Positions 1,146-46,700 of a DNA stretch of 64,000 nucleotides are shown here, one piece after another; position 1 is the first letter of the stretch; each line of letters starts with the position of its first letter. The position numbers and the translations under genes were made by a program. Source of the DNA: Owenia fusiformis (lineage: Eukaryota); assembly GCA_903813345.2 (NCBI GenBank), contig CAIIXF020000001.1, positions 3,348,001-3,412,000 on the forward strand, read 5' to 3'. The notes under the pieces were generated by a model. It was given only the letters and a program-made list of their open reading frames with translations, did not search any database and had not been told where the DNA came from.

Positions 1146-1155
1146 CTATGATTAC

Positions 1156-23700: not shown

Positions 23701-26700
23701 ATATTAAAATTTGAAAGCGTTTTCCTTACTTTCCTGGTGCGTCGTAAGCTTTGACCCAGAGGCTCGATGCCAGTTGAATGATTTGGGCCTGCTAATTTTT
23801 TCATCTGATAATGTTTTGATTTGGCCCCTACATCCCAAATCCTTATGACGCATCCTACTTCCTCTTTTCCTAGTTTAATCAACTTTGTACGTGTCATTAA
23901 TACAATGCACTGTGTGTAATTACATCACAATAGAAGTGAAGTTAGATTAAATTCACAATTTGCAAAATATTTTATCTTTCTTACTAGTACTTTGGAAAAT
24001 TGCCTGATGAATTGGAGTTTAAACAAAATGATAATCAGTTGTTTATTTTTGAAATATTATTTGCAGTCTGTTTTGCACAAAAACAAAATTATTATGTTCC
24101 TCCACCGATATTATCAAAAATAGCTTGCATTTATCAGCATGTTAAACATTGAGAAAGCACCAATCTATCAGGCACATTTTATAGTCTGGTGGTCGATGGT
24201 ATTACCCATTTTATTTCACAATCACAATTACACATCCATTTTATGTTAATTGTAATTTTATGTGTAATGGCTTGTAATTGTGAATAAACTACTGTCCAGG
24301 GCTAAAGCTGAAATGAGTTAGAATTGGTTGCTGGTTTGCATCAATATTTTTAGGTGAAAGGGTACTTTTACATTTTGAAATTTTGTATTTGTTTTACTGC
24401 ATAAATGTCTGGCTCATATGCCAAAATGATCTTTTCAGCATGTTTCTCCAAAACAAATGTTTTATCATCTTTGATATTCTTCAGTATCAATGGATGTTTA
24501 TATGAGACACATTCTACCAGCATTATTAATATTTATTTCATTAATAATTAGTTGGTCTTAATAAGTCATTAAAATTATGAAAAAATGTTATTTTATTTTA
24601 GGTCAACCTGGCCTAGGGGGACAGCAGGTTGGTCCCCCAAGAGGAATGCCCCCAGTTGGGATGCCACCGGGCCCACCTGGGGGACTCCCCCCAGTAGGTA
24701 TGCCACCGGGAGCTATGCCTCCAGTAGGTATGCCCCCTGTTGGAATGCCCCCTGCCCAACCGCCTCAAGTGCCCCAACAACAAGGAATAGAAGGAGGAAG
24801 ATCGGAGGGCAGTCCCATCTCAGGCTTCCAATGTCCAGCAAGACCTAACCATGGTGTTGATGGTAGACCCATCATGCTGCGTGCCAACCATTTCCAAGTG
24901 CGTATGCCACAGGGCTTCATACATCACTACGATATTCAAATCACACCAGATAAATGTCCAAGAAGAGTTAACCGGTAAGTACAATATTAATGCATTTGAA
25001 AGATCTAAGTAATTATTATATCACTGTCATATTCCCCACTCTCTTATTGGTCTATACCATACACTTGACTAAAAATAAGAAGGCTTATTCATCGCCCAAG
25101 CACTGAAATTAAAAGAATGAAAGATGCACAAGTATTCACCTCCATAGTATGAAATATTTTTGGATTATCATCCCTTTTGCTGGTATGCTCTGGCTCTGGC
25201 TTTTAAATTCTTCATATATCTTGAAAAATGTTATTCTCTGGCACTTTACGAAAATAAGATGTTCCCCTTCTGTGTATAACATGAGTGTATTTGTTGAAAA
25301 CAGGAAACATATTTTTCCCAACAGGTGCTTATATTTGCCATCTGCTGTTTTCTAATAAAAGAGCTGATTATATGATCTTGACAGTTGACAAGCACCTTCA
25401 TCATTAATATTGGGTTGCTTAATGATTTCTATTTATTTATTTTCTTCCTCGAATGTTATTCATCATTCTTACTAGCCTATATCTTGTTTTGTAATGCATG
25501 TGAAATTATTGATGGTGCAGTAGAATAAACTATGAGTTAACATTTTGACAGTCAACTTCCACCCCTTCCTTGCCAGGTTCACAAAACTGCAAATTTTATT
25601 CTATTATGTTATCTAATGTCCCCTTGTGCCTGCTTTTTAATTAAATAATTTAGTCATTATTTATTTTTATTTTAGTGAAATCATAGAAACAATGGTGCAA
25701 GCCTACAGAAACCAAATATTCAATGGCCAGAAACCAGTATTCGATGGAAGGAAAAATCTGTACAGTCGAGATCCTCTACCAATAGGGCGAGATAAGGCAA
25801 GTGAAATATGTAACCTAGAAACTTTAAGCCATAAAGTCTATATGTCAGTACCCTGCGTGCAGAGTCTAGTTAAACTACACTCTGCCTAGGAGAGACTATA
25901 TTGCAGTTTAGTAGCCCCGCCCCCACGACGGGTACCGGTGACAGTTTGGGTAATAAATCACTTTTGACCTACGCGCTGACCTTTCTTCCACCAATCAGCG
26001 AGCTTGAAAAAACATACGCCAAATGCGTTCTTATTAAATATGCGCATGTCATTGGTCAATTCCGGGCTCAACAATGACGTCAGAAGGAATGACCATATAT
26101 AGAACGTCGGTCAAATTTGGCCGACGAACACTGATTGGCGCGGTGAGTTCACAGGTTTATTTTAGTTTGAAAGAGTGAAGACGAAGCTCTCTTTTAAGAA
26201 GTGAAGTCAAACGAATGCAAAGGGTAATATGTCAGAATTAGAAAATGTTCATACATTCACAAATTGTGTCAACTTTTACTTTGTTTCATAAGTAGTGTAC
26301 TACTGTAAGACATGTGCATATTGAATGCCTATGGAGCTACAAAAACTAGGGAAGTGTCCACTACAGAATTGTTTTCAGTTGAAACATGTGTTCAGTAAAA
26401 TGGAGTGTAGCATGTTTTACTGCACAATACTTCCTATATGTCTGGCTTCAACGTAAATAATATGAATTGAAACCAAACAAACACTTTTATTTTAGATTGA
26501 AGTTGAGGTAACTTTGCCTGGAGAGGGTAAAGATCGTGTATTTAAAGTTGCAATCCGCTGGGTCGCCCAAGTCAACCTATATGCTTTGGAAGAGGCACTT
26601 GAAGGACGAAGCCATGCAATGCCATTTGAAGCAATCCAGGCACTGGATGTCGTCATGAGGCATTTGCCCAGTATGACGTAAGTCTTAATTATAACGAAAT

Positions 26701-29700
26701 AATTATAAGAATATATAATTAAGTGTATATACAGAATATGATTCGGTATGAAACGCTGAATTGGAGATTCTTAAACTAAATAAAATATTCGCTTTCAGGG
26801 TGAATGTTCAGCTTCAGTATTCAGGTTTTTAGGCAAATTGTTTTGTATTAATGTCAAATAATACACAGAAATTCTCATTTAATCTCCAGTGTGACTATTG
26901 GGATTGATTACATTGCTGAGATCAATTTTCTGCTGCCAGTCATGAAGGAAATAATGTTCTAGGCATGATTATGACGCACATGCACCAACATCCTGTAATA
27001 ATTATCCCATCGAATGAAGTTGGGAGGATATAGAGAACGCCTCTGTCCGTCTGTCTGGGCAATAGTTGGAATTCCATTGACCCAATGGCCAATATTGTTT
27101 ATATTTTATAACATATGACATATGCCCTATATGAGTAAAGTTGATTTTGGAAATGGCCACCAGTTTTAAAATAGCCACCATTTTAGTGTCAATTTTACAG
27201 TATTTTAGTTACAATATGTAATTCTGCATTACTTAAAGTAAAAACATGGCAGCCATGTTGAGTGATTTTTTGTTGAAATTTTACGCATGAATACTTGAAG
27301 CATATTACACTAATGACAGTGTAGTGGAGCGATTTTGGTGATATTTTTTATGTGAATTCTTATTAAAACTTTAAAGGCATGTATTACCTAATGACACTTT
27401 GGAAAATATTGGGAGCCATTTCCAGGAAATTATGGCCATTTTTGTTTGTGTTATTCTACATTTTTGCTATAATTGGAAAAGAAATAGAGCAATTTTGTTG
27501 ACACTGTTAAATTATATATCTGCTTTATATGGGCTTATTAGCCTATTGCAGATTATTGACATAGACATATCTTTTAGCAATACATCTATGGTTGCCATTT
27601 TGTGACATGATTTCTAGCAGTGTTGTCTGACACTCAATAGATGTTTGATAGGATCTTTCTCTTTGGCGTTGCTGTTATCTAGTTAGATATCCATTTTCAG
27701 GTCGTTATAGAGAAACCAAGCCTGGTGATTTTCATTACTTGAGTTTTCAATTTTGTGACATTCCTTTTCAGGTCCCTGGAGAGCAGATCAGATTTTCCAT
27801 TGATCTGTGAATAAATGTGCATCATATTAACTGCTTTGATTACTTACTAGGTATACCCCAGTAGGGCGTAGTTTTTTCTCACCCCCAGAGGGTAATTATG
27901 ACCACCCATTAGGCGGTGGGAGAGAAGTTTGGTTTGGGTTCCACCAGAGTGTACGTCCATCTTTGTGGAAGATGATGTTGAACATTGATGGTAAGACTGA
28001 ACTGTGTATATTTCCATGTATTGTTCTATGGTATGTGGCGGACCTGGCTAGCTGGCTTTTTCAATACAGGTGTAGGATGTGGCTACTTTGCATTTTTGAT
28101 AGCATGCATGGATGATCTGTTGTGCTGGTGTTTCTTTCATTATTACCCAAAGCATTCACATCAAGAATTTCTTGTGAAATACAATTCTTTCTGGCTTAAA
28201 CAACAACAATATCAACAATATGTTCACAATTTTTATATATAGTATATTCACATATTTATTTCACAAGATTCACACAGATTGATCTCTCATATTAATCTTG
28301 TGACATCATATATTGGGATGTTCAAAGTCAAATTGTATTTCACTAAGAAGGGAAATCTTGGTTCATACATGTTTGCTTGGTGTGTTTGTCTGCCTGCTTA
28401 TATATATTGGGATTCCATCCCCCAAGTGCACCTAATAAAAGAACTTTAAGGTACACCTTAGGGATGTTCCCTGGAGGTTTAAAAATAGTATTTTTGGTAC
28501 TTTTGTCATTCATAGTTTTCTGAGGTTCTAATTGGCAACAAAAGATATAAAACTTAAAAAATTATATTCTGTTAGTGTGCTTTTTTCCAAGAAATATTTG
28601 ACAAAATTGGGCGTGGCACTACCTCATTGAATCCCATGTAAACAATCAGATTTCACCCGAAACACAATTTGAAGTATTTAACTTTTCTTAAACTCACAGG
28701 AACACTTAGTTATGATATGTACATTACATTTGGAAGAAAGAAAATTTACCAATTAATGTTCATAATTTTCAACTTTGTCCAGGGTACATCCTTAATGGAT
28801 TTAAAAAACAGTGAATTCAAAACATTACAGGCTGGCATCTTGATAGAAATTGAGTTGTATGAATCCATGTTTTTTGGAGCTTGGTGATAGCTTAAGCTTG
28901 GGGATGGCTTTCTTAGTTATAATATAAGCAGGCAGATGCGTCATGTCACCGTTTTTGGTGTACTTTGTTTTAACTTCAATATTATGGTTACCTACAGCTT
29001 TAAAGAAACAATCAATTGAGTAGCCTAATTTGAAGTTTAGCAAAGTGCATATTCAATGACTGCCCCAGGTTCCCATGGTTTTTGTTGCTTGCTTTGAGTT
29101 TTCACCTTTACGTAGTCATGTGTTTAATTGCACAGATATACCCCAGTCGGCCGGTCTTTTTTCTCACAACCGGAAGGCTACAATCACCCCTTAGGTGGAG
29201 GCAGGGAGGTTTGGTTTGGATTCCACCAAAGTATCAGACCAACTCTATGGAAAATGATGCTTAACATAGACGGTAAACAAACGCAATGATATATTATTGT
29301 AATGGCCTTGTTAGTATAAATGCTTTCTTGGATTGGTGCTAGAATCTTAGACATTGTATTAAGTTGTTTTTATGTGTTACTTGGTCCGATGCATGTATAT
29401 AGTAAGATAAACTATTAAGAGGAAAATATTTAAATAATATGTGTTTTTTCGCTGCATATTTACTCTAGTATTCACATATTTCTTTGTTAGTTATGTTGAT
29501 TAATAAAAATACCTAGAGATATGCCTGCCAGTAAAAGAGCAAGATCTCTAGTAATAAAAATTAAAGTGATCAAATTTACTTTGTTTATGCTTATTTGAGG
29601 AAAGCCAGAAGGATGAGGCTGGTAGCATCTAATTTCACAATCTATTTTATTTAGTTTCTGCCACTGCCTTCTATCAGGCACAACCTGTGATAGAGTTCAT

Positions 29701-32700
29701 GTGTAAAGTCCTTGAAATGAGAGATGCCAGTGAACAACGTCGCCCACTTACTGATTCGCAACGAGTTAAATTCACCAGGGAAATCAGAGGTAAATGCTAC
29801 ATTCTGCTTTATTATTTTATTCAGTGTCCGCAACTGCGTTCTATAAAGCTCAGCCTGTCATCGAGTTCATGTGTGAGGTCCTTGACATGCGAGACGCCAG
29901 TGAACAACGACGTCCACTAACTGATTCTCAGAGAGTTAAATTCACCAAGGAGATCAGAGGTAAACAAATAAACAATATCTGTGAGTTGTGAAGCAAACAA
30001 ACAATGTTGTTGCGTGTTGGTGTTTGTAAACGTAGTACTCATAAGTCTTGTATCAAGCCATTGTGTACCCCCCCCCCCCACCTCAGCATTAAATGCTTTA
30101 TGAACCAGTGTAAGACCGATTTGGCAAATTAGAGCGCAGTAGTAGAGACAAGAGAGCAACCCCTTTGCTTTCAATAAAAATATACCACCAGTTATTATAT
30201 GCAGTTCATCTATCCATGTGTAATGCATTCATTTAGGCAATAAAGACGCTAACACCTGACACCTGGCTATTGCCTCATGAATAATTGGTTACACCCAAAG
30301 TACTTACAAATAATCCTCTATGAAAAGAGATATGATAATGGGGGAAATAACCTTGATGCAAGACTATAAACGCATGAAAGTTGATGTAAATATTATCTTT
30401 AATAAAGCTGGAAACTTGCTTGTAAATTTTACAGGTCTGAAAGTGGAGATCACACATTGCGGCACCATGAAACGAAAATACAGAGTTTGCAATGTTACAC
30501 GTCGTCCAGCGCAGACACAATCGTAAGTTAATTTATCAGTTTATCTTGTGGCTGTATTTTTGATGAGTGACTGGATTTGTTATCAAATAACTTGCGTGGT
30601 TAGCCATTTCCCACACTTGTAAGAGTATAGGCAACTTGGATTTAGTGAGTGAATCCATAAATTGGTACATGTACAATTATAACCTGTGAAGTGAACACCT
30701 CCATAACTGGAACACTTTTAAAGGTCACTTACCCATTAGCTTCATGTAAAATGAACTTCTGTACGTGGAATGCCTTCTAAGAGGACCATTTACTATTTAA
30801 AGGTACCAAATGTGTTCTACTTACACAGGTTTTACTGTATATCATAAAATCTACATGTGAAATATGTTTTTTCAGCTTCCCACTCCAGCTTGAATCTGGA
30901 CAAACCGTGGAGTGCACAGTGGCCAAATACTTCTTTGAACGATACAAAATGAAACTTCAGTAAGTATAAATGCAAATTTTTATTGGAACTGGTAGTGTTG
31001 GAATCCCCATGTTGTTGATTATACAGGGTCTTGATAGTTCATCCATGTTCCTCTACATTGAGAAAACGATACCTTCATCAAACTTACTTTGATGTTACTA
31101 TAACAAAATAAGAATAAACATTTAAACTTGTTCAGCATTTTCTTGTCAATGTCAAATGTTTTGATACGATAACATAAAAAAGTGATTTGATTTGTGAATC
31201 CATGTTAAAATTCTTATGTATATTACAGTGAGATGTTTCCTGTTATTTCAGATTTCCTCACCTGCCATGTTTACAAGTAGGTCAGGAACAGAAGCATACC
31301 TACCTTCCCTTAGAGGTATGGAGTTACCTTATCACGAATTAAACCTTATTTAAGAGGCAAATTAATCATTTATATACATACATATAAAATATGAGCTGAA
31401 TAACTTCAACGTCTATGATGAAAAAAAATTAAAAATTACCACGGTGTGTTTTGCTATTATTTGATTCATTGTCAAATGATTATGTGCTTATCTCAGTTCA
31501 CCTTATGATCACCTCAGTTATTCTATAGCTATCAATTCATTTTTCCATGACTATCACTTTATTGTACCACATCTTTCACCTTATTTATTCTGCAAATGTA
31601 CTCCAAATATTATGTTCCACTCAATAGTTTCCTTCCTGAAAAAATATTAGCCTGACTCATTAAAACTCACTCTTAAATTGTGGCCTCGGAGTTAATTTTA
31701 CTCCTAACCTATACTATGTGTATTACATCATGTGCATTATTACATCATGTGCATTATTACATCATGTGAATTAGGTGTGCAGGGTCATTGCTGGGCAGAG
31801 ATGTTTGAAGAAGTTGACTGACAACCAGACCTCCACTATGATCAAGGTAGTTATATTTTTACATGTTTATCTTGTAGGTTTGTGTTATAGTGGCTGGACA
31901 ACGCTGTATGAAGAAACTCACTGACATGCAAACATCAACCATGATCAGGGTATTCTTTTCATTCACATATTATACATGTGTTATATACCTGTTATTAGTA
32001 GCAAGCATGGTAAAGTTTGAACCTATGGACCATACATGCGTCATCGTGTGCTACTCTTAAAAGTGTCATAAATGGATACGTGGTGATTAGATTGCTGTTG
32101 TTAAACTCTGAAATGAGTCATACAGCAAAAGTAAATTTTCTGTATTCACATACAGATTTTTTTGTACATGGTGATGTATTCTTAGCCGCACTTTATTAGC
32201 TGAGAAATCTAATAGTTTAGCCTATTGTATGTAATTATCAAAGAGGTAATTACAAGTACCTATATGTAACCTGAAAAAAGTACAGGTTAAATGAATATGT
32301 TACTGTATGAATTTGTTCCTTCCGAAATTTCGGTTTTCTGAAAATTATGACATTGATATCTGGTAAAAGTTCAAAATCAATTCATGGAAGTGACCCGGGA
32401 ATATGTTGATAAAATGCAATCAACATCTTCATTGCAACCATGTATATCAAACTTCTACCATGCACTATTAGATAAAGTGTAATGTAGCATGCATGAGTAC
32501 ACATTCATCCCTTCTTATCCGCTATTGAAAATTGTGCAATGATACAACTTTTTTATTTAAATAGTGCAATGTTTAGGCAAGCAGAAATTTATTTTAGAAA
32601 GGCCTGCTTTAGTTCAGTTCATTGTTCTACGGAAGTTGTAGAATTTATGTATACTCATGTATTTCTATTAGTCATACTCAAGTAGATAATCGAAATGTGA

Positions 32701-35700
32701 TTATTAAATTTTTGTCTAACTAAGTTCTCTAATTTTTTTATTAAATGTATGAACTCGTATTTCATCAATGAAAATTTGGTCTAGAATCTAGACTGCATGT
32801 TGATTAGATGATTATTCCTATTTGCATGATTTGTTGTCTTTCTTTGAGAATATATCTTCAGAATATGATAAAGGATTCCTTTTCAATATGTAATTCAGAT
32901 TGAAAGTTCTATATACATGTTCATGTGTCAGGTGAGTTGATCTGGATGAATAATAAATATACACATGGATGTCTGGGATATGACAGACCATTGAATCCTC
33001 AAAGCACTAAATCCTTTAGTAGGATTATGAGCCATTTAGGTAGGCATCGGTATAGATTTTGGACATGGTACACATGTAAAAGGCCCAACAGCCAGTTTAA
33101 TCACTGTACACTGCCTACCTAAGTCTTTGTGACTCCTATTTGTGAAGAGTTATTTTATGTCTGACAATTAACATATATTGTATTGTTATATTGTAGGCAA
33201 CTGCCAGATCTGCACCAGATAGAGAGAAAGAGATCAATAGCTTGGTAAGTCAGCATTCCCCATTAAAGTAATTATTACCACTAGGAATACATTCAAGCTT
33301 AAGCAGTCTAAAGGCTCATTGAATTTCCCTGTCTTAATGTTAAATAAATGATATATAAAATGTTATCATATGGACTATCATTGTTGGTAAATGCTTAGAA
33401 GTGAATATACATTGTTCAACACATCAGTGACTGGTGCTTACAAATTGATTGCTTTATACATTAGATACATATCACTTTGTTTTCTCATATACATTTATTA
33501 TACATGTATGTGAAATTGATTATATGCTGGAGATAAAACATGGTAAGATACTCAGATACGCAGCTGTAATTTTGCCAAGCTAGAAATTTTTTGTCCAAAA
33601 TTAAGGTCGAGGATAAATATAAGTTAAATGATCAAACTAGCCTTTCCTTTAACCCTTATCCTCCCAAGACTAGATTGTTTCATGATTCTATACTTCTGCC
33701 ACCAGAAGTTGTGTCGATGCCAAAATTATTTCTCCCAACTTCTTTGTGACCAAAATATTGTTTAAAAATCAATGATACCAGAAACTTATTTGTAAGGTAA
33801 ATAAAGAAAATGTTGGAACATACATATCAGTACATTTTTAAGCATTATGAAATTCCTGACATTTTATTACTTGTCACTGGGAGATAAGGGTTACATAGGA
33901 ATGTTAGTTTTGCCTAAATGTTTAATTTCTTCATTGTACAGTATGCCAGAAGGAGGAATTTTTGTAAGAGTTTACTTGGTTATAATATAAAGCCAACAAG
34001 TTTGACCATTTCCATGTATTTCTATATTCATGTGTTTTTGTGATACACTTTTCGAAACACTCAAAGTTTTAGTTTTTAGAGAATTTTGTCTTTTGCCCAT
34101 TTTTATATCACTTTCTTTTCTTAAATCTTTATATCTAAAAAAAGAGATGATGAATTTTTTTGTCCATTTTTTATCAGTTTCTTTTCTTATAAATTAATAT
34201 CTAAAAAAGAGAAATTAACTTCCAATCTCCTTTCAGTCTACTTCTGTTGCCCTTGTATTACAAAAGTCATCCCCAAGTATCATTCTGCTGTGTTTCTCCT
34301 TTTGATTAAATCTCCTGTCATTAGAATTGTGTTGAAATGATTAGCATTATGTTGTATAACTCAAACAAGCTTAAAATTATATAGAGTGAGCTTGAAAATA
34401 TTTGCACTCCATTCAAATATGTCGGAGAAGTTGACCAGAGTTGACGGGAGGACAGTAATTGCACCCATTGATCTTATTTCTTGCCATGTGCCTAGGTACG
34501 CAAAGCTGACTTCAACAATGACCACTACCTACAAACATTTGGCATCAGCGTGGCGAACGCTATGACCGAAGTTCAGGGTCGTATCTTGCCCCCGCCTAAA
34601 CTACTCTATGGTGGAAGGGTAGGCATACATTATACAACCCCCGATCAAAGACCACAATAATACAGTCATACAGCATAATGAATCAAATTATTTAATTCGC
34701 ACAATAAAATTAATTCTCATCAATGAAGTCAGTTTATTATGCTCCATTCATGTATAGTTTGGGATTTTTCATATAAAGAAATGGTTGCATTTCTTTCAAA
34801 CCATATTATGCTGTGTGTTTAGAAATTATTGTGTCCTTTGATGTTTATTTTTCAGTCTGACTGGCAATAATAGGCTGAGAAACAATGCATATGACATTTC
34901 TGTCAATCCCAGCAGTTGATATGCATATATGGCCTAATATTGCATGTGATATGGTGAGAGGTGTGCAATGGCTGGTCACTCACACTTAACCAATCGGGTG
35001 CCTCTGTCTGTCTACTTATAAGCCGCCATTTCACACCTCATCACCATTGCTGTCTCAGTGAGAGGCATGTTTGTGATATGAAAGGTCCCGTCACTTCTGA
35101 GTGTTCGGAGTGCCCTCTGGTGATGTATGTTTGTGATATCGTGTTTTGCGACCCATTCTGTTGCCATTAGGTTCGTAAAGCTGATTTCAACTCGGATCCC
35201 CATCTACAACTGTTCGGAGTGAGTGTGTCCAACAGAATGGTAGAAGTCCAAGGCAGAGTTATCCCACCCCCCAAACTACTGTACGGAGGAAGGGTATGTT
35301 AAGAAGGACCACGCCTGTGATGCATGCGTTGTTTCAAAATACAGACAAGCTGAATGTTCTGAGCTGCCAATCATCATCTATCCCATAATGCACCTGGTGC
35401 TGTCTGCTCTTTCACTTCCAGATAATTCCCCATTCAAAAACTGTCAATTTTTGGTCTAAGAAGTATTGGAGAAAAAAAATGAAAAACAAGAAATAAAATC
35501 TGTTACATTTTGGGGAAATGTCTTGCAGATGAGAGAGTGGCAGGCATATTGTTATATGTATGTCTTGAGGAAGTGTAGATGTTTTATTCGAAAACCTACG
35601 TGTTTTGTCGAGATTTTCTCTTTGTTTAGTTTGTCTAATACTCTAACATCACTTCATAACCTCTGTACAAGTAATCATCAATCCAAGCACTGTTTTAGAC

Positions 35701-38700
35701 ATCAAACATGGTTTTTGAGAAACCGAAAACTTAAAGAAACTGGAAAATGATTATTACTTGTTTTGTTAGATCTAGTAGCTCAGATAATTTCAGTTTTGTT
35801 GTCTTTATAGTTTTAGTTTATTTTCTATTTTGGTTTCAGTATTTAGCCATAATATCCCAAAATTATCTTTTTAAAATATTTTTAATGCATGTTCATTATT
35901 ATTTAATTTTTGTATGCAAATTCTGAAATCACTTGTTTACACTGGACATGTATTATAGTGCAAATTATCCATTGCAATGTTGTTCCTTTAAATTAGTGCA
36001 GGTAGGTAGGTATTCACCATATTCACCTCATATATTGTTATCCCATATGTGCTTTTAGAATTCATTCCCAAGTGGCTGAACAGATTCTCATTCATATATT
36101 TAGTCCTAGATCATTTCCCAATTTTTTGTTTTGTTTTTATGTCACCACCAAAAGTGGTGACATATTATTAAAGTCTCCAACTCTTTGTGGACTGTGTTCA
36201 GCAGTTGATGTTCGGTGGTTGGTGTTCAGCATCTGTAATAAATGGCAGGTAGTGACATTTTGCATGCTGATGCCTTGTTAATAATTGAAATGAAATTGTT
36301 TAGTTTTGAATTATTATGATTTCATAGTAATTTTATTTTGACTTGAATGTAACCTATTCAATCATGATTAACCAAACGTGTGATGTGCTCGAGTGAAAGT
36401 GTGTGTGTTTGGATCAGTGTGATAAGAAAGAAAATAAAAAGTAATATCTGGAGTACATTTCATCAAGAAAGGTTTTAAACTCAATGATGTACAGGTGTGT
36501 AGATTTGAGTAAGCTTTGTATTTGGTAAATGCTCCAGATGTAACACTCCCATGTGATCGATGTATGAATGTGGCTTTATTCCCAACTGGCTTACATCTTG
36601 ATGAGAACATCTTTCATTTACATGTGCTTATGTAAAGCTCACATGTTCTTCACATGAAAACACATATTTTGCAATTATAAACAGAAGCACTATGAGATAC
36701 AAATTCGAACATTTTCTCATCACCAAATTTTGCACTTTGTCATTTCATCTTAGAAATCAGTATAAAATTTTTATGTTGAAAATATATTTACTATTAGTTT
36801 TATTATATCCATCACACTATTTGCAACTCAAGACAACACTAATAAAGTTTTTAAAGAATTACCAACTGAACATAAAATCTTGTTACCATGACAACGAGAA
36901 ATCAGATTTATACAAACATTGATTTTACTTGTAGACGAAAGCCCAGGCTATTCCCAACCAGGGAGTATGGGACATGAGAGGTAAACAGTTTTACAGTGGA
37001 ATAGAGATCAGAGTCTGGGCAATTGCATGTTTTGCACCTCAGCGTACAGTCAGAGAAGATGCTCTAAGGTAAAAACAATATAGCCCCCAAGAGTGCTTTA
37101 AATAATAATTATTCAATAATTGTATATATGAAATTATAAACAGTTTGTTGAGGGGAGAAGTACTCATGAAAATATAGAACAAATGAAGTAAGAATGATCC
37201 ATCCCCTGGACAAAGATCACATGACTGAGGTCAAGGTCACGAGGTAACTGAGACTTCAAACTGTTAGAATCGAAGAGTTTTACTTCTGAAATGCTAAGCA
37301 AATAAAGATAAATTCAACAAATAGTAAACTTAACTCAAGGGTACACAAGAACAAGTTAACTTGTGTTGCTTTGGGCACTTTAGAGAAACAATCATTTTCG
37401 ATAAATAGTAAATAAAAAATTTTCCAGTTTTATGATGAGAAAAAAGCCTTGCTATTTAATATTTATGAATTATTTTTCAGAAACTTCACATCCCAGTTAC
37501 AACGTATATCTAACGATGCAGGAATGCCTGTAGGGGGTCAACCATGTTTCTGTAAGTACGCCACAGGCCCTGACCAGGTAGAGCCCATGTTTAGATACCT
37601 GAAGAACACATACCAGGGCCTACAGCTCATCGTCGTTGTGCTTCCTGGAAAAACACCCGTATATGGTAAGTGTTGAAATTTTATTACAGTAAAGACATTT
37701 CAATTGAACAACTCTCTACAAAGAAGTTAGTCCCATTTACATGTAATATAAATGAACCCCCACTATCTATGAGGAACTATTTGGCCAATACTGAATGTGT
37801 TCTGTTGACACAGGTTTTATAATATGAAGTAAAACCTGTTTCTTTGAATACCAAAAGGGTTCCCTGGGGTTTGAAAAACAAAAATCCCTGGCCTGGAAAA
37901 GTTCATGAATTTCAGAATTTCCTTTAAAATGTCTAAAATTGATTTTATGCTGGTAGCATGTCTGTGATGTTCTTTTTTGTGTAATGCCAAGAATAACAGT
38001 TCCCTTTACTACATGGAAGTTTCTATGTATTTTAGCTGAGGTTAAGCGAGTGGGTGATATTCTATTTGGTTTGGCCACTCAGTGTGTTCAGGCAAAGAAC
38101 GTCATTAAAACATCCCCACAGACCCTCTCTAACCTATGCCTTAAGATCAACGTCAAACTAGGTGGCATCAACAGTATACTCATGCCTAGTGTTAGGTAAG
38201 TCATACATTTCTGCTATAGGTTCATTGTAAACAAAATTATATACTGTATTCTCTGTATTGGCTTGGGAGTTTATGAAATTCGAAATACATCCTTCAGACC
38301 ATTCAAATAAGCGCCCATAAATGAACGTTAAAAATCCCTGGTAGTTTCATATGTGGCAATTTTCTTGCCAAGAATGGCTTATTCTCATTTGAATTTATAT
38401 CTTAAATTTTTAATTGAATGACAGATCATCATTTTCAAGTTCACAGCCCTGAAGTGCGCAGAAGCTTTCTTGGTTACATGTTGAAACATTGTTCTTAAAC
38501 TTGAACATTTCCTTCATTCATATATCAGGCCAGCAATATTCCGAGAGCCTCTCATCTTCATTGGTGCCGACGTAACTCACCCGCCAGCAGGTGACGTGAC
38601 AAAACCCTCAATAGCAGCCGTTGTGGGCTCACAGGATGCCCATCCCAGTCGATACGCCAGCACTGTCAGAGTCCAGTCTCACCGGCAAGAAATTATCACC

Positions 38701-41700
38701 GATCTAGCCGCCATGGTCAAAGAACTGCTCGTCCATTTTTACAAGTCCACCAAGTTTAAGCCCACCAGAATCATCATGTACAGGGATGGTGTCAGTGAGG
38801 GCCAGTTCGCTGAGGTTAGTAGCTTGCTTGATTACTCATTGAAATCAAGAATCGCAACATTTTTAAATGTTATATTCAATATTGAATATAACATTTTTGT
38901 TAACTGACATTCAGTATCTTTAACAAATGGTACTTTTGTGACTGCAGTCATGTGATGACATTTTTTAAAGTTAAAATGGTGCTTTGTTGCTGTTGAAATG
39001 AGAAGAATATATACTATTAAGAGAATACTTTTACACTTGCTTGTGTTCTTCATTGAATTCAGGATTACTTTGTGCTTCCATCTGTTCTTTTTTCAATTAA
39101 ATTCAAATTGCTTCTGGTTTATAAGTAAAACATGATTGTTGAAAATCTAATTAGCCATGAAATGTATATGCCCCTGGCCTTTTTCTTTTTCGTGTATTGT
39201 ATGAAACATTGTTTGATTGACTTTTAATTTAATAAATTGAATTGAACTGAATTGAATTGAATTGAACTGAACTGAATAACAATTAGAGTAAAACCTGTAG
39301 AAATGAACACCTTTGGTACCTCAAATTTAGAAGGTGTTCCACTTGCAGAAGTTCATTTAGCAATATTCAGTTATTCAGTAATAGTTGAAAAGTGTTCCAT
39401 TTATGGGAGTGCTTCTCTTACAGAGGTCTTCCCCTTCACAGGTTTTACTTTAGATAACTTCAGTTGTTCTTGAAGTAAGTAGTATGTTAATGATTTTATA
39501 AAAAATTCTTGTTAGGTTTTGGTGCGTGAGCTACGTGCCTTACGTGAGGCCTGCATGAAGCTGGAAGTTGGTTATCAACCAGGAATCACATTCATTGTGG
39601 TCCAGAAGAGACATCACACAAGACTCTTCTGTGCAGACAGGAAGGACCAGGTAATATAATACAGAGTTTCATGTCATCATTGAAAAGTTAAGCTACATGT
39701 TTTTTAAGAAAACGTGTACATGAGTGTCTAATATTATGACCCCAGGGATTACAGAAAGGACCAGGTAATATAATACAGAGTTTCATGTCATCATTGGAAA
39801 GTTAAGCTACATGTTTTTTAAGAAAACGTGTACATGAGCGTCTAATATTATGACCCCAGGGATTACAGGAAGGACCAGGTAATATAATACATGATTCATG
39901 TCATCATTGGAAAGTTAAGCTACACGTTTTTTAAGAAAACGTGTACATGAGTGTCTAATATTATGACCCCAGGGATTACAGAAAGGACCAGGTAATATAA
40001 TACAGAGTTTGATGTCATCATTGGAAAGCTGAGTGTGTGATGTGTAATATTATGACCCCAGGGATAACCATCCTCATCTCACATGACTCTTCCAGGGACC
40101 TAATTACTACTATTTCCCTTATGCCTTTATTCTCAGTAAATACAATGAAAAGAAGAATTTATGTTAACTGAAAATGTCTAACTTCTGAAGTTTGTCCTGA
40201 TTGGTTAACAAATGGCTACATATTTTTGGGCATTGACCTAATTTCTACTCAGCTATAAACTGAACATAGACATAAGCTATTGTAGAATGAATCATCACCT
40301 TCTCTAGATTCTAAATTGATTTGTGTAAGAGTGCTAACATTTCTCATGTTTGTTGTTAGATTGGGCGCAGTGGTAACATTCCAGCAGGTACAACAGTGGA
40401 TGTAGGTATCACCCACCCCACAGAGTTTGATTTCTACCTATGCAGCCATGCTGGGATCCAAGGCACAAGTAGGCCTTCTCATTATCACGTCCTGTGGGAT
40501 GATAACCGATTCACAGCTGATGAGCTGCAGATGTTGACATATCAGCTGTGCCACACCTATGTACGTTGTACCAGAAGTGTCTCGATTCCTGCACCTGCTT
40601 ACTATGCACATCTTGTGGCATTCAGAGCCAGATATCACCTTGTAGAGAAAGATCATGATAGGTAAAGTAGCATATACCTATTTTATGTCTAGTCCTGTTT
40701 TACTAAGTACTTATTATTGTGAGTTCATTTTTATGTCCCCATCATATGTGATGGAGAGATTACTTTTTAACAACTGTCAGTCTCTCGGTCTATTACTAAA
40801 ATCTAGAAGTTTAGGGTATCAAATGAATTAGGGAAATTTTTTAGTCCTTAACATTCATTTTTACATTCACAGTAAATGAGCATTTCAAACTTTTTTGCAA
40901 AATCTATACACTTAATGATGACTGCATCAGGCTGACGTGTTTAACCATGTGTAAAGTAAAATTTTGATTCAATCACACAAGTAAATTCATAGAGGTAATA
41001 AGCAGTATAAGGGTTCACTGGGTAATACATGGTGCCCTTAAAAGAACTTTCTAAAGATTTTTTATCTCTCTTAACTCTAACTTCATTCTATGTATACTAT
41101 AGCCTGTCTAATCTGAACGCAATTTAGATCTGCCAAAAGTTTTCTGATCACCAGGTATTCTCCTTTTGAGGTCTTAAGATCAGAGCATATGAAATAATGG
41201 ACTAAAAAAGATTCACATTGAGAGGTGTTCAATCATATAATAGGTGTTTGGATATACATGTTTTACTGTAGTTTAACATGGGGACATTCTACACTCTTGT
41301 GCTTTATTATTTCAGCAGAAACAAAGCAAATATTACCCAACAGAAAATGTCATTAAAAGAAAATGCCTATTCCAATCCATAGTTCACTTGTTATAATTTT
41401 TATTTATTTACATTAATTTACATATTGTTTTGATATTAAGTACATTGAACCCCCTTTACATTGTATACTGGCTTTCCTCTCTCTGGGGGGTGGTAGTTTG
41501 CCTATAAACCCGTCTGTTAAGTTTGTGAAAGAAGTTTATAACTTTGCAGTCTGCATGATACTGCAACAAGAAAGATGTTCAACATGACATAAAACATTAA
41601 GTTCTCAACAAACTCCAGTACTACAGTAGTATTGGAGAATATGTAACAGTGTATCTTTGGTTCATAAACTTCTTACTCTAGTTCCATTTTATATAAATGA

Positions 41701-43743
41701 TTCAGTCATGTTGGTCATGCTTCTGTGCATTTGCTTTATGCATGTGTGTCTAATGCCCTTTAGTTCAATTACTAGTGTATTCGTCACTATGGTGATGCTC
41801 TTGAAATATTTAATGAAAGCCAAAGTTTCATCAGTTCCAGTTATAAAAATGGATGCTAAAAGGAATAACTGATACACATGACTAATAAAAACATGCATGT
41901 CCTCAGAGTTGATACTAAAGTTTCACTATGCTGCCAATGGGGTTTCTATTCAGGATATCTTAATCACACTTGCTAGTTTTCTGTGTTCCAAGGTGCAAAT
42001 TTCTGCAAATAAAAATAGCAAATCTGTAAAGATTCTGCATTTATTGCAGCTGTTTTTTGGGGTTTAATTTGAAGTGTAGAAAATGTGTGATTCAATGAAG
42101 TAATTTTCTTTAATGAACATATGACAATTTAATACATGTCGATGTATTATATTTCATTGCTTCTGTTGTGCACATATTGATCAACATTGTAGGAAATGTC
42201 TAGAAATATAAGGTTTATGTATCCTAGATGAGCCGTTTCTGTTTTGTTAATTTGCAGTATTGAAAAATTCTGTAAATGAAAATAGCATTTTTCTGTTGTG
42301 TGTAGAAAATGGAAAACTGTAAGTGTGATTAATAAATGACAATTATTGAAATACATGCATCATGTTTTTAATGTATATCAGAATTCACAAACTTAACCAG
42401 TCAGATTGATGGCAATTTTTCCCACCTTAATCTTGATTCATTTTTGAAACAAGTGCTTTAGATTTAACATTTAAAAGAGCAATTAAACGATTCATAAATT
42501 CTGATATTACAGTATACTTAGTGGTAGCGGGATGCCAGTCATCTAACACGAATTATAAGCTTGTGTTGTGCATATGTTTCTTTTATTTTATTCTGCACAG
42601 TGCTGACAATGGAAGTTCAGGGAATGGTCACAGTTTCCATGCTTACGGGTCAACATCTGTATACAGGTACAAAATATAAAACATTTATTTCATTTTTAAC
42701 TTTTTGTTGTTTTCTGTTATTGCTTGCATATAGGAAATAACATAAGACCCTGCCCAAGAGGCTTTGTACTCCCAGAGTTTTTCTTGATTTGTTTTTAAAA
42801 ATCTGAGTTAACTGTGAATTTCAAGGGCATCATTGTGTATTGTTAATATGTTGGTGTGCTGTGGCTGCTGTGTGTGTTGTGTGGCTATTAACCACTGCTA
42901 GCTTATAGTCTACTCTGTAACCTGCATTCACTTATACCTCCTGTCAATATGCAACAACCATATTATCAATCCAATACCACTTTTTATGTTGAGACACCTA
43001 ATCACTGTGTCCAATTTTAATTATATATTTTTGGGAAATATTGTCCTGTTTCTACTCACTACTAAGCGGGTAGCAAAAATTTCAACACAAAGGAGTGACA
43101 CCAGTAGGTTCCTGCCAAAATGATACATTATTGCTTGGAAATTTTGAATGTGCTTGTTTATAAACATAAAAACACAAAACCATGTCTCTTCTATCAAAGC
43201 AATCCAACATATATTATCAGATATTCAATAGACATAGATACAATTTTTGCTTTTTGAGAGACATTATAATTCAAGAAAAAAGATGGCAGTGTGGGTGGTC
43301 TTAAGGAAAGCATGGTGACCAGAAACAAGAATTACTTTTGCTTGGCCTAATTTATCTTCTGTGAAATTAGCTTTCATTATGCTTAACTGCAGTTTGTGCT
43401 TTTTATTTTTACAATTTACACATAATTTCCATGTATGCTTATTAGCATGATAACAGAATGCCCCTTTATAAAATTGGAATAAACCATTTAGATCAGTCAA
43501 AAGTCCTCTTACCTTACCTAAAAAATAGAAGGATTGGACTACCACTAGGGCTAACCCAAACTCTGATTCCTTCACATTTACCTTTATTTGAAGTAGACGT
43601 GTAATTAATTAATGATGTTGTTTGCTTTCAGTGGGGAGGGCAGCCAGTTGTCTGGAGATCCATCGACTGACCACAACCCCCAGGCTCTGGCGAGGGCCGT
43701 CTCAGTGCATCCTGATACATTCAAAGTCATGTATTTTGCCTAG
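20769..43743 (+). CDS. AGO: AGO-clade Argonaute (miRNA type, similar to vertebrate AGO1-4 and insect Ago1), about 922-971 aa depending on isoform, DEDH intact
   Basis: Exons E1 20769-20796, E2 22052-22129 (cassette), E3 24602-24974, E4 25676-25796 (GC donor), E5 26496-26677, E6a/b, E7a/b, E8 30435-30522, E9 30876-30959, E10 31252-31315, E11a/b, E12 33197-33244, E13a/b, E14 36935-37068, E15 37481-37665, E16 38036-38195, E17 38529-38814, E18 39516-39650, E19 40360-40661, E20 42601-42666 (cassette), E21 43632-43743. Motifs: [15 protein letters not shown] (PAZ), GKTPVYAEVKR (MID), [29 protein letters not shown], and C-terminal MYFA*. E1 and E2 are less certain than the rest. Confidence 0.97.
22052..22129 (+). 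CDS. AGO: Argonaute N-terminal cassette exon (78 nt, phase 1-1)
   Basis: Pyrimidine tract + acag|CG AAT...CCA G|gtaaat; open frame (A)[25 protein letters not shown]. Confidence 0.6.
27001..27676 (-). mobile_element. Degenerate HINE/pearl-like element in Argonaute intron 5
   Basis: Reverse-complement similarity to both ends of the element at 55321-56598 (attatcccatcgaa..gaagtt..., ...ctttggcgttgctgtt). Confidence 0.65.
27851..27990 (+). CDS. AGO: Argonaute exon 6a (L1 linker)
   Basis: 140 nt, [50 protein letters not shown]. Confidence 0.93.
28458..28795. mobile_element. Old MITE between Argonaute exons 6a and 6b
   Basis: Imperfect TIR ttagggatgttccctgga / tccagggtacatccttaa. Confidence 0.45.
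29136..29272 (+). CDS. AGO: Argonaute exon 6b (L1 linker)
   Basis: 137 nt, [49 protein letters not shown]. Confidence 0.93.
29655..29789 (+). CDS. AGO: Argonaute exon 7a (L1 end / PAZ start)
   Basis: 135 nt, [49 protein letters not shown]. Confidence 0.92.
29825..29959 (+). CDS. AGO: Argonaute exon 7b (L1 end / PAZ start)
   Basis: 135 nt, [49 protein letters not shown]. Confidence 0.93.
31775..31846 (+). CDS. AGO: Argonaute exon 11a (PAZ end / helix-7)
   Basis: 72 nt, [28 protein letters not shown]. Confidence 0.9.
31878..31949 (+). CDS. AGO: Argonaute exon 11b (PAZ end / helix-7)
   Basis: 72 nt, [28 protein letters not shown]. Confidence 0.9.
34496..34618 (+). CDS. AGO: Argonaute exon 13a (L2)
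   Basis: 123 nt, [45 protein letters not shown]. Confidence 0.92.
35171..35293 (+). CDS. AGO: Argonaute exon 13b (L2)
   Basis: 123 nt, [45 protein letters not shown]. Confidence 0.92.
39637..40064 (+). repeat. ~114-nt tandem repeat (about 3.7 copies) spanning the Argonaute E18 donor
   Basis: The unit starts acagRaaggaccag|gtaatataat; GT donors at 39651, 39765, 39879 and 39992. Confidence 0.95.
42601..42666 (+). CDS. AGO: Argonaute C-terminal cassette exon (66 nt, phase 2-2)
   Basis: Long pyrimidine tract + gcacag|T GCT GAC...TAC AG|gtacaa; open frame (S)[21 protein letters not shown](S). Phases match the E19/E21 junction. Confidence 0.65.
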
Positions 43744-46700
43744 ACATATCTTAAAGATGTGTGCTGGAGAAGGGTCACAAAATGAAAGCGCAAAGTAGAT
43801 TGGTCTAATCAAAGCTGTATTTATTAACTGAAAATCTCACCAGGAGTGCCGGGTATTTAGTACGCTCATTGGCTGATAGATGGCTGTTGGAAAAGGAGTA
43901 ATTAAAACATTTGAAGACAGGAGTTGTTTCTCCACTTGCACATTGTATGCATGAGTTTATATCTAAGGTTTCAGAATCGCCTATTTAGTAGCGAACGATA
44001 GTGCACATATCCAATCCATCAAATGTATATTTTAGGTATTTTATTACTGGTTTTTATTTTACTGTGGTTTTCATGGTCAGATATGAGCTTCACCAGAACT
44101 TCTCACCAAATGTATTGTCACCATGAGGGAATACCACCAAGTAGGTAACATTGTATATATAGTTAAACAAATCCATGAGGTTTTTAGTTAACTTGGTTTT
44201 TAACTACAGACATTGTCTGCTAAAATACAATGTGCAGCTATTAATTTGCTGTCAAAAGCATTGCAATATCCATGTATCTCAAAAAGACAGACACAAGAGG
44301 GTGTTTGACAGTACTGAATATAGTCTGAAAGATCTCGCATTAACCTGCTTTATTTATAACAATGCCATATCAGTCTTAATAGCATGTAGCGCATTAAAGT
44401 ACTAGTAAAAAAATCTATGTAGCAAAACTTGTTTCATTCTGGACTACGAAATAATTATTACGATTTTCTGTTACAAGAACGTGTGTCGTGTGTTTATTGA
44501 TTAAATGAGTGAACTGCTATCTCAAAAATGACAAATAGCTCAATTTAACAGTGCAAAGTTAAATAACAATATTCAATAAGGACTCGTACCATTTTGCAAT
44601 TGTTAGAGATTATCTATTTTTCACTTGAGATTAACTAGTTTATAAGCCAGTGCCTTGTGAAAGCCAAAGAAATCATAAAATAACTTTTGAAAAAGTCTTG
44701 AAAAGAGAAATGCAATTGTCAAATGATATGAGTTCAATATCTTCCAGTCAAAAGTATTATGAGAGATTGCAATATTGTGTAGCATATCACTGTGATCGGG
44801 CAGTCGTGTTATCTCCCTCAGGAGCAAGGGAGCTTATGCAATTTACTGACACAATTTACTGTTGTCAGTTTTTCCATTCAAAACAACACTGCGTTTTGCA
44901 TGCAATTGCAAATGGAACAAAACCACATGTATTATTATGTAACACCTTTGTAATATTGTCACCCACTAAGCCTAAGACAGCTATGATAAGCTACTTTTTC
45001 AGGTAACACAAAGGTTGTTCTCGATGTCGGATTTAGATCAATATTACTAACTAACATCTTATTGTCCAAAAACTGAGATAATTCCCTGTGGCTTAATGAA
45101 TAACTTTTACTTAATTGTTTCATCCACAGCCAATCTAGCTGAAAGTTGAGTTCAGTTCATCTTGCAATACATGGCCATGGTATTTATACTTAAGCTTGGT
45201 TATGCGGTCGGTTATTCCAATTAAATTATACTGTATCTGGTAGAGTGCAGTCATACACTTCCTTATACCAAGTGCATTATGTGAGTGATCTTGCAATCTA
45301 CCAATCTCACTAGTTCTTCGGTACTGTATCTATTTTGCAATAGGTGGTTTTTGTTAGGTAAGAAAACTGATCTCTTAAAGCCAAGTGTATGTGAACACAT
45401 GGTTGCAGTGGTGCCTCTTTCACTATGTATGCAGAATGCATTTACTCAAAAGACATTTTCACTTAGGTGGAGCTAATGACCAAATACATAAAACAAGTTT
45501 TAATGTGGAGTATTGCCCTTTGAGGGTGTTAAACCATTGAATACAACATGGCCATAGTTTGACATGTGTACCAATAGATTTCAATATTTGACACTGTCTT
45601 TGGGCAAAAACTATATGCAATAGCAATAGTAATATTAGAGTTAATTCTGACATTTAAAACACTATTTTGTAGTCATAAAATGATCAAAGTTTAATATACA
45701 TAAAGTTGCGCTAAAGGATGTTGTCATGTAATGGCTGTGAAATAATGTCATCTCTACTGTATCCATGTATACGGTATCAATTTATAGCCATATATGGTAT
45801 CCATGTGTACAATATCATATGTACTATATCCATGTATATGGTATGGATACTTTAAGTATCAATTAATACAGTATTGATCATTACAATATTTATGGATATA
45901 GTATCAATATATACAGTGTCCATCATACAGTATCAACATTTACAGTATCCATGGATACAGTTGAGATATGGAACCTCTTAAGGGAATATGTCAAGTGGAT
46001 AGATCCAATGCAAAATCATGTTATTATGAATTTTGTGTTGCTTTATTCCATATTTTATATTTTGTAACACATTAATTTCTGGATACCTTAAATAACCATC
46101 CCTATCCGTACCACAACTTGGTATCCAGGAATTAATGCGAAACATTGCCTCAAATATGCAGACTAGGTGATAACTCAACGTTTAATAAATCTAATAAGGT
46201 ATACATGTTAGATATATTATTATATATATATATAATGCATGGTGACTGTTTAAAGAAGTCATTATATGTAAAAGGGCTGCCGGTCTTAGTATGGACCTTT
46301 TGACAAGTGTCAGTTAGGTTGTGTGATCACTAGACTGATGTGATGCTAAAATTGCCTATGCCTTTTAATGTAAATGGTCAATTTTACTATCCAACAATTC
46401 AATTCAAGGGATTCAATTACAATAAAGTTCAGTGTTTTTGTTATAAGCATGTAGCCATAAAGCTTCCAAAGACAAAAGACAATGTATTGAAAAGAATGTT
46501 CAGTTTGCGATTTTGTAAATATAGAAATAATTCCATTTATTCAAACCAAATGAAGCTAATGGCTATTCGAATGATATTTTGTAGTTATTCGTGTATTTTA
46601 GTCCTCTGTAATATACTGGGTGGCCTAAAAGTAGTTTTCCAGTTATTCAACAATCTCTATGTGAACTGTAAACCTACTTTTAGACCACCCTGTTTTGTTT

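Follow-up and report, generated by a model that had tools for sequence, protein, structure and literature searches.

The window analyzed here, a 64,000-nt stretch of an Owenia fusiformis contig, carries on its forward strand an Argonaute gene with four clusters of duplicated exons (6, 7, 11, and 13) and one cassette exon (exon 20). The gene is an AGO1-class (miRNA-class, AGO-clade) Argonaute of an annelid. A gene model assembled in the window from exon choices 6b, 7a, 11a, and 13b translates exactly to residues 37 to 970 of P0123, which its public source names as an Owenia fusiformis protein. Six Pfam families (ArgoN, ArgoL1, PAZ, ArgoL2, ArgoMid, and Piwi) were all detected in P0123 above their cut-offs, and residues 107 to 970 aligned with human AGO2 at 1472 bits. 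RNA evidence was drawn from three raw-read runs (X13, X14, and X15) and a set of transcript contigs (X9) carrying the same species label; the junction evidence consists of 15 of 147 joints. The relevant features are as follows, in window coordinates.

27851-27990, + strand: exon 6a, 140 nt, in Argonaute linker 1, alternative to exon 6b
29136-29272, + strand: exon 6b, 137 nt, alternative to exon 6a; found in X13 to X15 and in the annotated protein
29655-29789, + strand: exon 7a, 135 nt, phase 1; preceded by ...ttatttag and followed by gtaaat
29790-29824, + strand: spacer between exons 7a and 7b, 35 nt, with gt..ag ends, gtaaatgctacattctgctttattattttattcag
29825-29959, + strand: exon 7b, 135 nt, phase 1; followed by gtaaac
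30435-30522, + strand: exon 8, 88 nt, constitutive acceptor for 7a or 7b; joint 30522 to 30876
31775-31846, + strand: exon 11a, 72 nt (a multiple of three), at the end of the PAZ profile, the dominant form
31847-31877, + strand: spacer between exons 11a and 11b, 31 nt, with gt..ag ends, the second sub-minimal spacer
31878-31949, + strand: exon 11b, 72 nt, differing from 11a at 6 of 24 residues
34496-34618, + strand: exon 13a, 123 nt (a multiple of three), in Argonaute linker 2, alternative to exon 13b
35171-35293, + strand: exon 13b, 123 nt, 552 nt downstream of 13a, the major form
42601-42666, + strand: exon 20, a 66-nt cassette present in X13 to X15 but left out of the X9 contig

Exons 7a and 7b are tandem homologous exons of equal length and phase, each with an AG acceptor and a GT donor. 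The two 135-nt exons and the 35-nt spacer lie where the preliminary description had placed them, and the letters match. The pair is 83% identical at the nucleotide level (23 of 135 positions differ), and the translations differ at 4 of 44 residues, with Q, K, E, and R in 7a and K, E, D, and K in 7b. Counting by the Nei-Gojobori method over the 44 whole codons gave 18 synonymous and 4 non-synonymous differences, with the 23rd nucleotide difference located in the split first codon; the earlier observation of just four residue differences against many silent changes was therefore confirmed. An independent repeat finder recovered the same pair as a 152-nt direct repeat (family D1; 84% identical, 170 nt start to start) that continues past the exon by 12 nt on the upstream acceptor side and by 5 nt on the donor side, a similarity far above chance. 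Exon 7b has an open frame, an intact acceptor tract, and an intact gtaaac donor. According to Pfam, exon 7 bridges the end of Argonaute linker 1 (profile ending at residue 314) and the beginning of PAZ (residue 330), and the four variable residues correspond to positions 226, 236, 239, and 260 of human AGO2. The exons had been called PAZ variants: the start of PAZ is indeed included, but the exon covers the L1/PAZ junction rather than PAZ proper.

Among the 22 inter-exon gaps of the gene, the spacers of clusters 7 and 11 measure 35 and 31 nt, far shorter than the other 20, which range from 292 to 1939 nt. Table 3 of PMC12257675 gives a median intron of 1,091 nt for Owenia fusiformis. The spacer between 7a and 7b also contains the pyrimidine tract of 7b (80% Y over the 20 nt before cag), together with its only yUnAy branch candidates, which are 21 and 29 nt away from the 7a donor. 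Steric thresholds are available for other species, namely a minimal intron of ∼40 nt in C. elegans (PMC4165533) and, in human, a donor-to-branch distance of <50 bp (PMC5740500). Any branch site in the spacer would be separated from the 7a donor by at most 29 nt, and the claim that the spacer falls below the usual minimum holds against these C. elegans and human values, which may not be those of Owenia fusiformis. Because 7a and 7b are both multiples of three, reading frame cannot prevent their double inclusion, as had been pointed out. Both sub-minimal spacers lie in clusters of this kind (135 nt for exon 7; 72 nt for exon 11), and 5 of 10 such clusters in C. elegans have too-short introns, according to PMC4165533. 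In the third cluster with exons divisible by three, 13a/13b, the spacer measures 552 nt, so the gene does not rely on short spacers alone in dealing with such pairs.

RNA evidence was consistent in its preference for 7a. The joint from 6b to 7a (29271 to 29654) was covered by 58, 56, and 180 reads in X13, X14, and X15, respectively. In the same order, the bin containing 78 nt of 7a and all of 7b had depths of 11.6, 9.9, and 32.8, versus 23.4, 21.9, and 70.2 for a comparison bin with 194 exonic nt. By bin arithmetic, residual 7b depth was ∼13%, 7%, and 9% of 7a depth in the three runs, or about 5 to 13% or less overall; this residue does not exceed the error of the method and might reflect pre-mRNA. 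The length of the X9 contig (1469 nt) is exactly that expected for exons 2-3-4-6a-7a-8-9-10-11a followed by 26 nt of exon 12. Its bin depths match 7a and not 7b, and its length leaves no space for a second 135-nt exon, which excludes double inclusion in that transcript. The sole annotated protein likewise has one copy of exon 7, with the 7a peptide 100% identical to P0123, and the 7a-only form is thus present in reads, contig, and annotated protein. Among the protein database matches listed, none carried the exact 7b peptide (best match, 93%). Joints from 7a to 8, 7a to 7b, 6 to 7b, and 7b to 8 were absent from the 15 of 147 joints listed, and among these no read of X13 to X15 or contig of X9 connected 7b with either exon 6 or exon 8. 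Exon 7a is the dominant choice in X9, X13, X14, and X15. Since 7b depth is low, joint inclusion of 7a and 7b is at most minor, on the order of a tenth of transcripts or less. The earlier expectation that 7a is not spliced to 7b stands insofar as the depths have 7a included and 7b mostly or wholly skipped.

The other tiny-spacer cluster behaved similarly. Two joints that skip 11b were detected in X13, X14, and X15: 31313 to 31773 (63, 72, and 187+2 reads) and 31844 to 33195 (77, 90, and 157+2 reads, together with the X9 contig). The X9 bin depth is accounted for by 11a alone (2643 versus 36.7 × 72 = 2642). In cluster 6, where the spacer is 1145 nt, the joint into 6b (26677 to 29136) was covered by 69, 62 (+1), and 189 reads in X13, X14, and X15, with an X9 depth of 0. 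Exon 6a is the form in the X9 contig (bin depth 7.68 = 36.7 × 139 nt) and was almost unused in the three runs (bin depths of 0.34, 0, and 0.16). Exon 13a made up ∼16 to 30% of use by depth in X13 to X15, and the joint leaving 13b (35292 to 36934) was covered by 77, 73, and 200 reads. Both joints of exon 20 (40659 to 42599 and 42663 to 43629) were present in X13 to X15 with an X9 depth of 0; the second X9 record splices 40659 straight to 43630 without it. Exon 20 aligns to a gap in human AGO2. Rbfox-type control was considered separately for the window and dropped, as TGCATG was not enriched (52 occurrences versus 44 ± 6 expected).

Selection and ancestry were assessed from the two exon copies and from outgroup exons. 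Between 7a and 7b, dN was 0.040 and dS was 1.34, and third-position identity was 0.61. In 78 outgroup exons, the residues at the four variable sites were K-E-D-K (63 exons) or K-E-E-K (15 exons), and the Q-K-E-R combination of 7a did not occur. All four replacements were therefore assigned to the 7a side, leaving the 7b lineage with none despite near-saturated silent divergence. Judged by these outgroup residues, 7a is the derived, lineage-specific variant and 7b keeps ancestral-type residues; the substitution rates indicate that purifying selection acts on both. It is this selection from which we infer that 7b is used, probably in cells or stages outside those represented by X9 and X13 to X15. 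No second exon copy was found near this exon within the flanks covered at 80 metagenome loci (58 cDNA-like, 21 genomic, and 1 other), a result that tells us no more than that the duplication lacks a wide distribution.

Taking these data together, we favor, with a probability of roughly 0.65, the reading that 7a and 7b, products of a tandem duplication, exclude each other in splicing and are kept apart by the 35-nt spacer. The steric interpretation given in the preliminary description fits and is partly supported. We infer steric block, competition for occupancy, and use of 7b to operate as follows. Nonsense-mediated decay, like reading frame, is unable to police a transcript with both exons, each being a multiple of three. 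With so short a spacer, the 7a donor would overlap the 7b branch site and its pyrimidine tract, and the intron between them would hence not be removable. Binding of U1 at the 7a donor and of U2/U2AF at the 7b acceptor would be mutually exclusive, such that the first exon to be recognized would win and the other copy would be handled as intron. Such a model predicts a default to the upstream copy, matching the use of 7a and 11a in both tiny-spacer pairs.

Three other explanations were weighed. According to the first, the duplication left 7b (as well as 11b) behind as a silent relic: 7a would be constitutive, with no regulated alternative, and 7b would never be recognized because its acceptor is buried beside a strong donor. 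The lack of a 7b junction among the joints listed for X13 to X15 and the X9 contigs agrees with this explanation, as do the 7a-bearing annotated protein, the missing exact 7b peptide among the listed database proteins, and the fact that the downstream copy is the unseen one in both tiny-spacer pairs. However, 7b is ancestral at all four differing sites although silent sites are near saturation (at the dS given above), and its frame, acceptor tract, and donor are intact; a neutral copy of such age should have accumulated many replacements, indels, or stops. The residual 7 to 13% depth is also compatible with low use of 7b. We therefore consider a silent relic unlikely.

The second explanation accepts exclusion as real and attributes it to splicing regulators or competing RNA structures rather than to spacer length, the short spacer being a mere footprint of a small (170-nt) duplication unit. 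Clusters 6 and 13 (spacers of 1145 and 552 nt, the latter between exons divisible by three) do appear to be handled without short spacers, and outside the exon the repeat unit continues for just 12 nt upstream and 5 nt downstream. Yet two independent sub-minimal spacers, both in clusters of exons divisible by three, are unlikely to have been kept through near-saturated silent divergence without constraint. Local RNA structure around the spacers was no better than in shuffled sequences (z = +0.91 for cluster 7 and −0.74 for cluster 11), and the long-range complements touching both spacers (I13 and I14) are short (19 nt, 84%), imperfect, and probably due to chance. We regard this explanation as quite improbable. 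The third, that the spacer behaves as an ordinary, if very short, intron and the mRNA carries 7a and 7b in tandem as a 45-residue internal repeat, can point to the gt..ag ends and to two in-frame exons but is close to refuted by a 7b depth of at most about a tenth of 7a depth in X13 to X15, by an X9 contig too short for both exons, and by the single copy in the annotated protein, whose sequence equals that of the window model.

The mechanism of the favored reading, in which too short an intron makes two exons mutually exclusive, is textbook knowledge. The classic steric case is that of mammalian alpha-tropomyosin exons 2 and 3, where the upstream donor is too near the downstream branch point. 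The 7a/7b pair probably shares this arrangement, with a donor that would be too near the branch point for joint splicing; in contrast to alpha-tropomyosin, whose intron is longer and has a branch point that is unusually distant and close to the donor, the entire 7a/7b intron measures only 35 nt. Further parallels are the C. elegans clusters with too-short introns in PMC4165533: egl-15 5B/5A (14 nt), let-2 9/10 (30 nt), bet-2, gly-5, and gly-6. Like 7a and 7b, these are tandem homologous exons, often multiples of three; their intervening intron is below the ∼40-nt species minimum, double inclusion was not observed, as reported there, and the proposed steric logic is alike. The Owenia fusiformis pair differs in gene family and phylum, and here double inclusion and 7b-only forms were judged by depth, rather than counted. 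In human, 57 clusters of mutually exclusive exons (9% of all) have a donor-to-branch distance of <50 bp (available text of PMC5740500), the same criterion under which a distance of 29 nt or less falls here. The human set is a genome-wide prediction, and no Argonaute gene appears in that portion of PMC5740500.

Among the papers listed by literature searches, none, judged by title and abstract, dealt with mutually exclusive exons in an Argonaute gene, and no paper was returned on Owenia fusiformis and argonaute. The locus probably presents a known splicing mechanism in a gene family for which no earlier report was found. As a tentative and rather doubtful extension, splicing, in place of gene duplication, may be how this single gene diversifies its guide-handling L1-PAZ-L2 module, with four two-way clusters and a cassette allowing up to 32 combinations. 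The 31- to 35-nt spacers would hard-wire two either/or switches that default to the upstream, lineage-specific copy, and the ancestral-type 7b, perhaps also 11b, would come into use only in certain cells or stages to yield a RISC with different small-RNA or partner preferences. If the exons are regulated, this annelid, which evolves slowly, would serve as a natural experiment showing which L1, PAZ, and L2 surface residues tune an Argonaute, and a single transcript would supply two clean tests of the steric rule, each independent of the other. Argonautes are usually thought to diversify via paralogues rather than alternative homologous exons. The vertebrate AGO1-4 paralogues arose by gene duplication. 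Like these, the variants described here lie a few residues apart on a conserved scaffold; unlike them, they come from exon duplication inside one gene, are confined to L1-PAZ-L2, and can be combined by splicing. Solved vertebrate AGO structures match P0123.

A protein search with exon 7a of this AGO1-class Argonaute gene returned a 100% match to P0123, a 970-residue database protein of Owenia fusiformis with the source label "unnamed product / Protein argonaute-1"; the second-best identity was 84% among the best 120 of 1092 candidates (1087 with E≤0.001). P0123 was placed on the window by tblastn, and exon ends were set with the help of the sequence and RNA splice joints. The resulting model of exons 2 to 21 (with 6b, 7a, 11a, and 13b) was stop-free and identical to P0123 residues 37 to 970. 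The protein carries ArgoN, ArgoL1, PAZ, ArgoL2, ArgoMid, and Piwi domains, and its residues 107 to 970 align with human AGO2. Using tblastn with P0123 and with a bivalve orthologue, we detected four duplicated-exon clusters in the gene.

Duplicated exons and cassette exon of the Argonaute gene (window positions)
27851-27990 and 29136-29272: cluster 6, copies 6a and 6b, 140 and 137 nt, spacer 1145 nt, linker 1
29655-29789, + strand: cluster 7 (L1/PAZ junction), exon 7a, 135 nt, acceptor ...ttatttag just before it (read from the sequence)
29790-29824, + strand: 35-nt spacer between 7a and 7b, gtaaatgctacattctgctttattattttattcag
29825-29959, + strand: cluster 7, exon 7b, 135 nt, followed by gtaaac
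31775-31846 and 31878-31949: cluster 11, copies 11a and 11b, 72 nt each, spacer 31 nt (gt..ag), end of the PAZ profile
34496-34618 and 35171-35293: cluster 13, copies 13a and 13b, 123 nt each, spacer 552 nt, linker 2
42601-42666: exon 20, 66-nt cassette, present in runs X13 to X15 and left out of the X9 contig

Sequence reading over 29400-30200 and translation bore out what the preliminary description had assigned to the 7a/7b pair: its coordinates and lengths, the letters of its spacer, and the residues that differ. The 44-codon cores differ at four peptide positions (Q/K, K/E, E/D, and R/K), corresponding by alignment to human AGO2 residues 226, 236, 239, and 260. In a library of solved structures, the 7b peptide matched human AGO2 residues 220 to 263 and a fly Argonaute 1 PAZ construct. 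When flanks were included, the likeness reached ∼12 nt back into the acceptor region and 5 to 6 nt into the donor, and an independent repeat finder returned a single 152-nt direct repeat (D1; 84% identity, spacing 170). The copies had also been called PAZ variants. This is imprecise: exon 7 (P0123 residues 307 to 352) takes in the end of the ArgoL1 Pfam profile, which runs to 314, and the beginning of the PAZ profile, which opens at 330, and it therefore represents the L1/PAZ junction and not the 3'-end pocket.

As had been argued, reading frame cannot block inclusion of both 7a and 7b, since each is 135 nt, a multiple of three. Of the 22 gaps between consecutive exons, two measured 31 and 35 nt and the other 20 ranged from 292 to 1939 nt; both tiny spacers are therefore extreme outliers within the gene. 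Both occur in clusters (7 and 11) with exon lengths divisible by three, in which double-inclusion products cannot be purged by a frame shift. Exon lengths are likewise divisible by three in cluster 13, where the spacer is 552 nt and exclusion can be enforced by neither of these two means, frame or spacer length. Residues differ at 6 of 24 positions between 11a and 11b and at 10 of 41 between 13a and 13b.

Upstream of 7b, the spacer contains only two yUnAy branch candidates, at distances of 21 and 29 nt from the donor of 7a, and the 20 nt preceding the cag of the 7b acceptor are 80% pyrimidine. Given their footprint sizes, U1 bound at the 7a donor and U2/U2AF bound at the 7b acceptor would overlap within the 35-nt spacer, such that recognition of one exon would mask its partner and favor the first-transcribed copy. 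Such masking would account for the dominance of 7a and 11a. For human genes, the described criterion for steric interference is a donor-to-branch point distance of <50 bp, which applies to 57 clusters, or 9% (PMC5740500). In C. elegans, the minimal intron is given as ∼40 nt, and five clusters are described with too-short introns (e.g., 14 nt in egl-15 and 30 nt in let-2), excision of which is reported as never observed (PMC4165533). The median intron of Owenia fusiformis is reported as 1,091 nt (PMC12257675). We therefore read 7a/7b as a steric either/or switch. It would work in the same way as the C. elegans too-short-intron clusters and the tropomyosin exons, a further case of steric exclusion. 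The anatomy of the pair fits the steric-exclusion class, with double inclusion bounded by depth and not by junction count.

No outstanding local RNA structure was detected around the spacers. Stretches of 19 nt within each tiny spacer have 84% complements 1.2 to 2.7 kb downstream (29794-29812 with 32472-32490, I13; 31857-31875 with 33063-33081, I14), probably by chance. Three tandem units with 17-nt spacing (overlapping 19-nt copies; D5) abut the 11a acceptor at 31721-31773, and the last 60 nt before this acceptor contain no yUnAy branch candidate.

RNA use was assessed over 24400-44300 in three raw-read runs with the same species label (X13, X14, and X15) and in a transcript contig set (X9); read counts follow the order X13/X14/X15. 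The splice joints reported, from the 15 listed of 147, include no 7a-8, 7a-7b, 6-7b, or 7b-8 joint, and 7b was bounded by depth. The 6b-7a joint (29271 to 29654) was supported by 58, 56, and 180 reads. Depth in bin 29048-29711, with 194 exonic nt (6b and 57 nt from the start of 7a), was 23.4/21.9/70.2, or ∼80/75/240 per exonic base; bin 29712-30375, with the remaining 78 nt of 7a and the whole of 7b, gave 11.6/9.9/32.8. Subtraction of 7a left ∼11/5/22 per base for 7b (∼13%, 7%, and 9% of 7a), a residue that still includes intron background and whose size is within the error of the bin arithmetic. Therefore, 7b, alone or joined with 7a, is present in at most about one-tenth of transcripts in X13 to X15. 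The X9 contig (1469 nt, depth 36.7) has 609 nt left past the piece that stops at 26677 (position 860 of the record), the same as the sum of 6a, 7a, 8, 9, 10, 11a, and 26 nt of exon 12. Its bin depths equal 36.7 times 139 nt (6a), 58 nt (the bin with the first 57 nt of 7a), and 85 nt (the next bin); the last agrees with 7a (78 nt there) and disagrees with 7b (135 nt). In this second, independent data set, the main transcript therefore splices 7a to exon 8 without 7b.

Elsewhere in the gene, joints were supported from exon 4 to 6b, bypassing 6a (26677 to 29136; 69, 62 [+1 on the other strand], and 189 reads), from exon 10 to 11a (31313 to 31773; 63, 72, and 187 [+2]), from 11a to exon 12, bypassing 11b (31844 to 33195; 77, 90, and 157 [+2], and also in an X9 contig), and from 13b to exon 14 (35292 to 36934; 77, 73, and 200). 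For clusters 7 and 11, the upstream copy alone was clearly visible. In contrast to X9, whose contig contains 6a and omits exon 20, X13 to X15 use 6b almost exclusively and include exon 20, which encodes an insertion absent from human AGO2. Both 13a and 13b are used, with 13a at ∼16 to 30% of depth in X13 to X15. Clusters 6 and 13 as well as exon 20 are therefore truly subject to regulated alternative splicing. A GC-donor intron (gcaagt; 25797-26495) was backed by 65/71/201 joint reads. Two intronic stretches (25849-26226 and 36134-36279) showed very high RNA depth from either strand, together with hundreds of loose ends and numerous variants, and probably represent members of an expressed repeat or transposon family.

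The contrast drawn earlier between few replacements and many silent changes was upheld: 7a and 7b differ by 4 nonsynonymous and 18 synonymous changes (dN 0.040, dS 1.34). For pairs 11 and 13, synonymous sites are saturated (pS 0.86 and 0.80), with dN of 0.22 and 0.21. Among 78 full-length exon copies from 80 metagenome loci, the four variable sites read K-E-D-K in 63, K-E-E-K in 15, and Q-K-E-R in none; the 7b residues are therefore ancestral at each of the four sites, and every replacement falls on the 7a branch. At third positions, 7a and 7b are 0.61 identical, the same value as for 7b and its best outgroup (0.61) and higher than the outgroup median (0.40); the duplication is therefore old. 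The zero replacements, open frame, and intact splice signals of 7b would not be expected of a long-dead exon and form the sole argument, an indirect one, that it is in use. A second exon 7 copy was detected in 0 of the 80 metagenome loci within the fetched flanks, and none of the best 120 of 1092 candidate proteins other than P0123 exceeded 84% identity to 7a; on present data, the 7a type is lineage-specific. In P0010, a 91-residue open frame from another organism, the complete exon is closely preceded by an additional, partial copy of its first eight residues, which may be a remnant of a similar duplication elsewhere.

In the titles and abstracts of the literature searched, no Argonaute gene was described as having mutually exclusive exons. 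The exclusion mode is itself already known, and the interest of 7a/7b lies in the Argonaute host and the surrounding four-cluster architecture. In the neighboring sequence, translations inspected by eye suggest open frames resembling phosphofructokinase (1049-14145, − strand) and ribosomal protein L19 (14749-17312, + strand).
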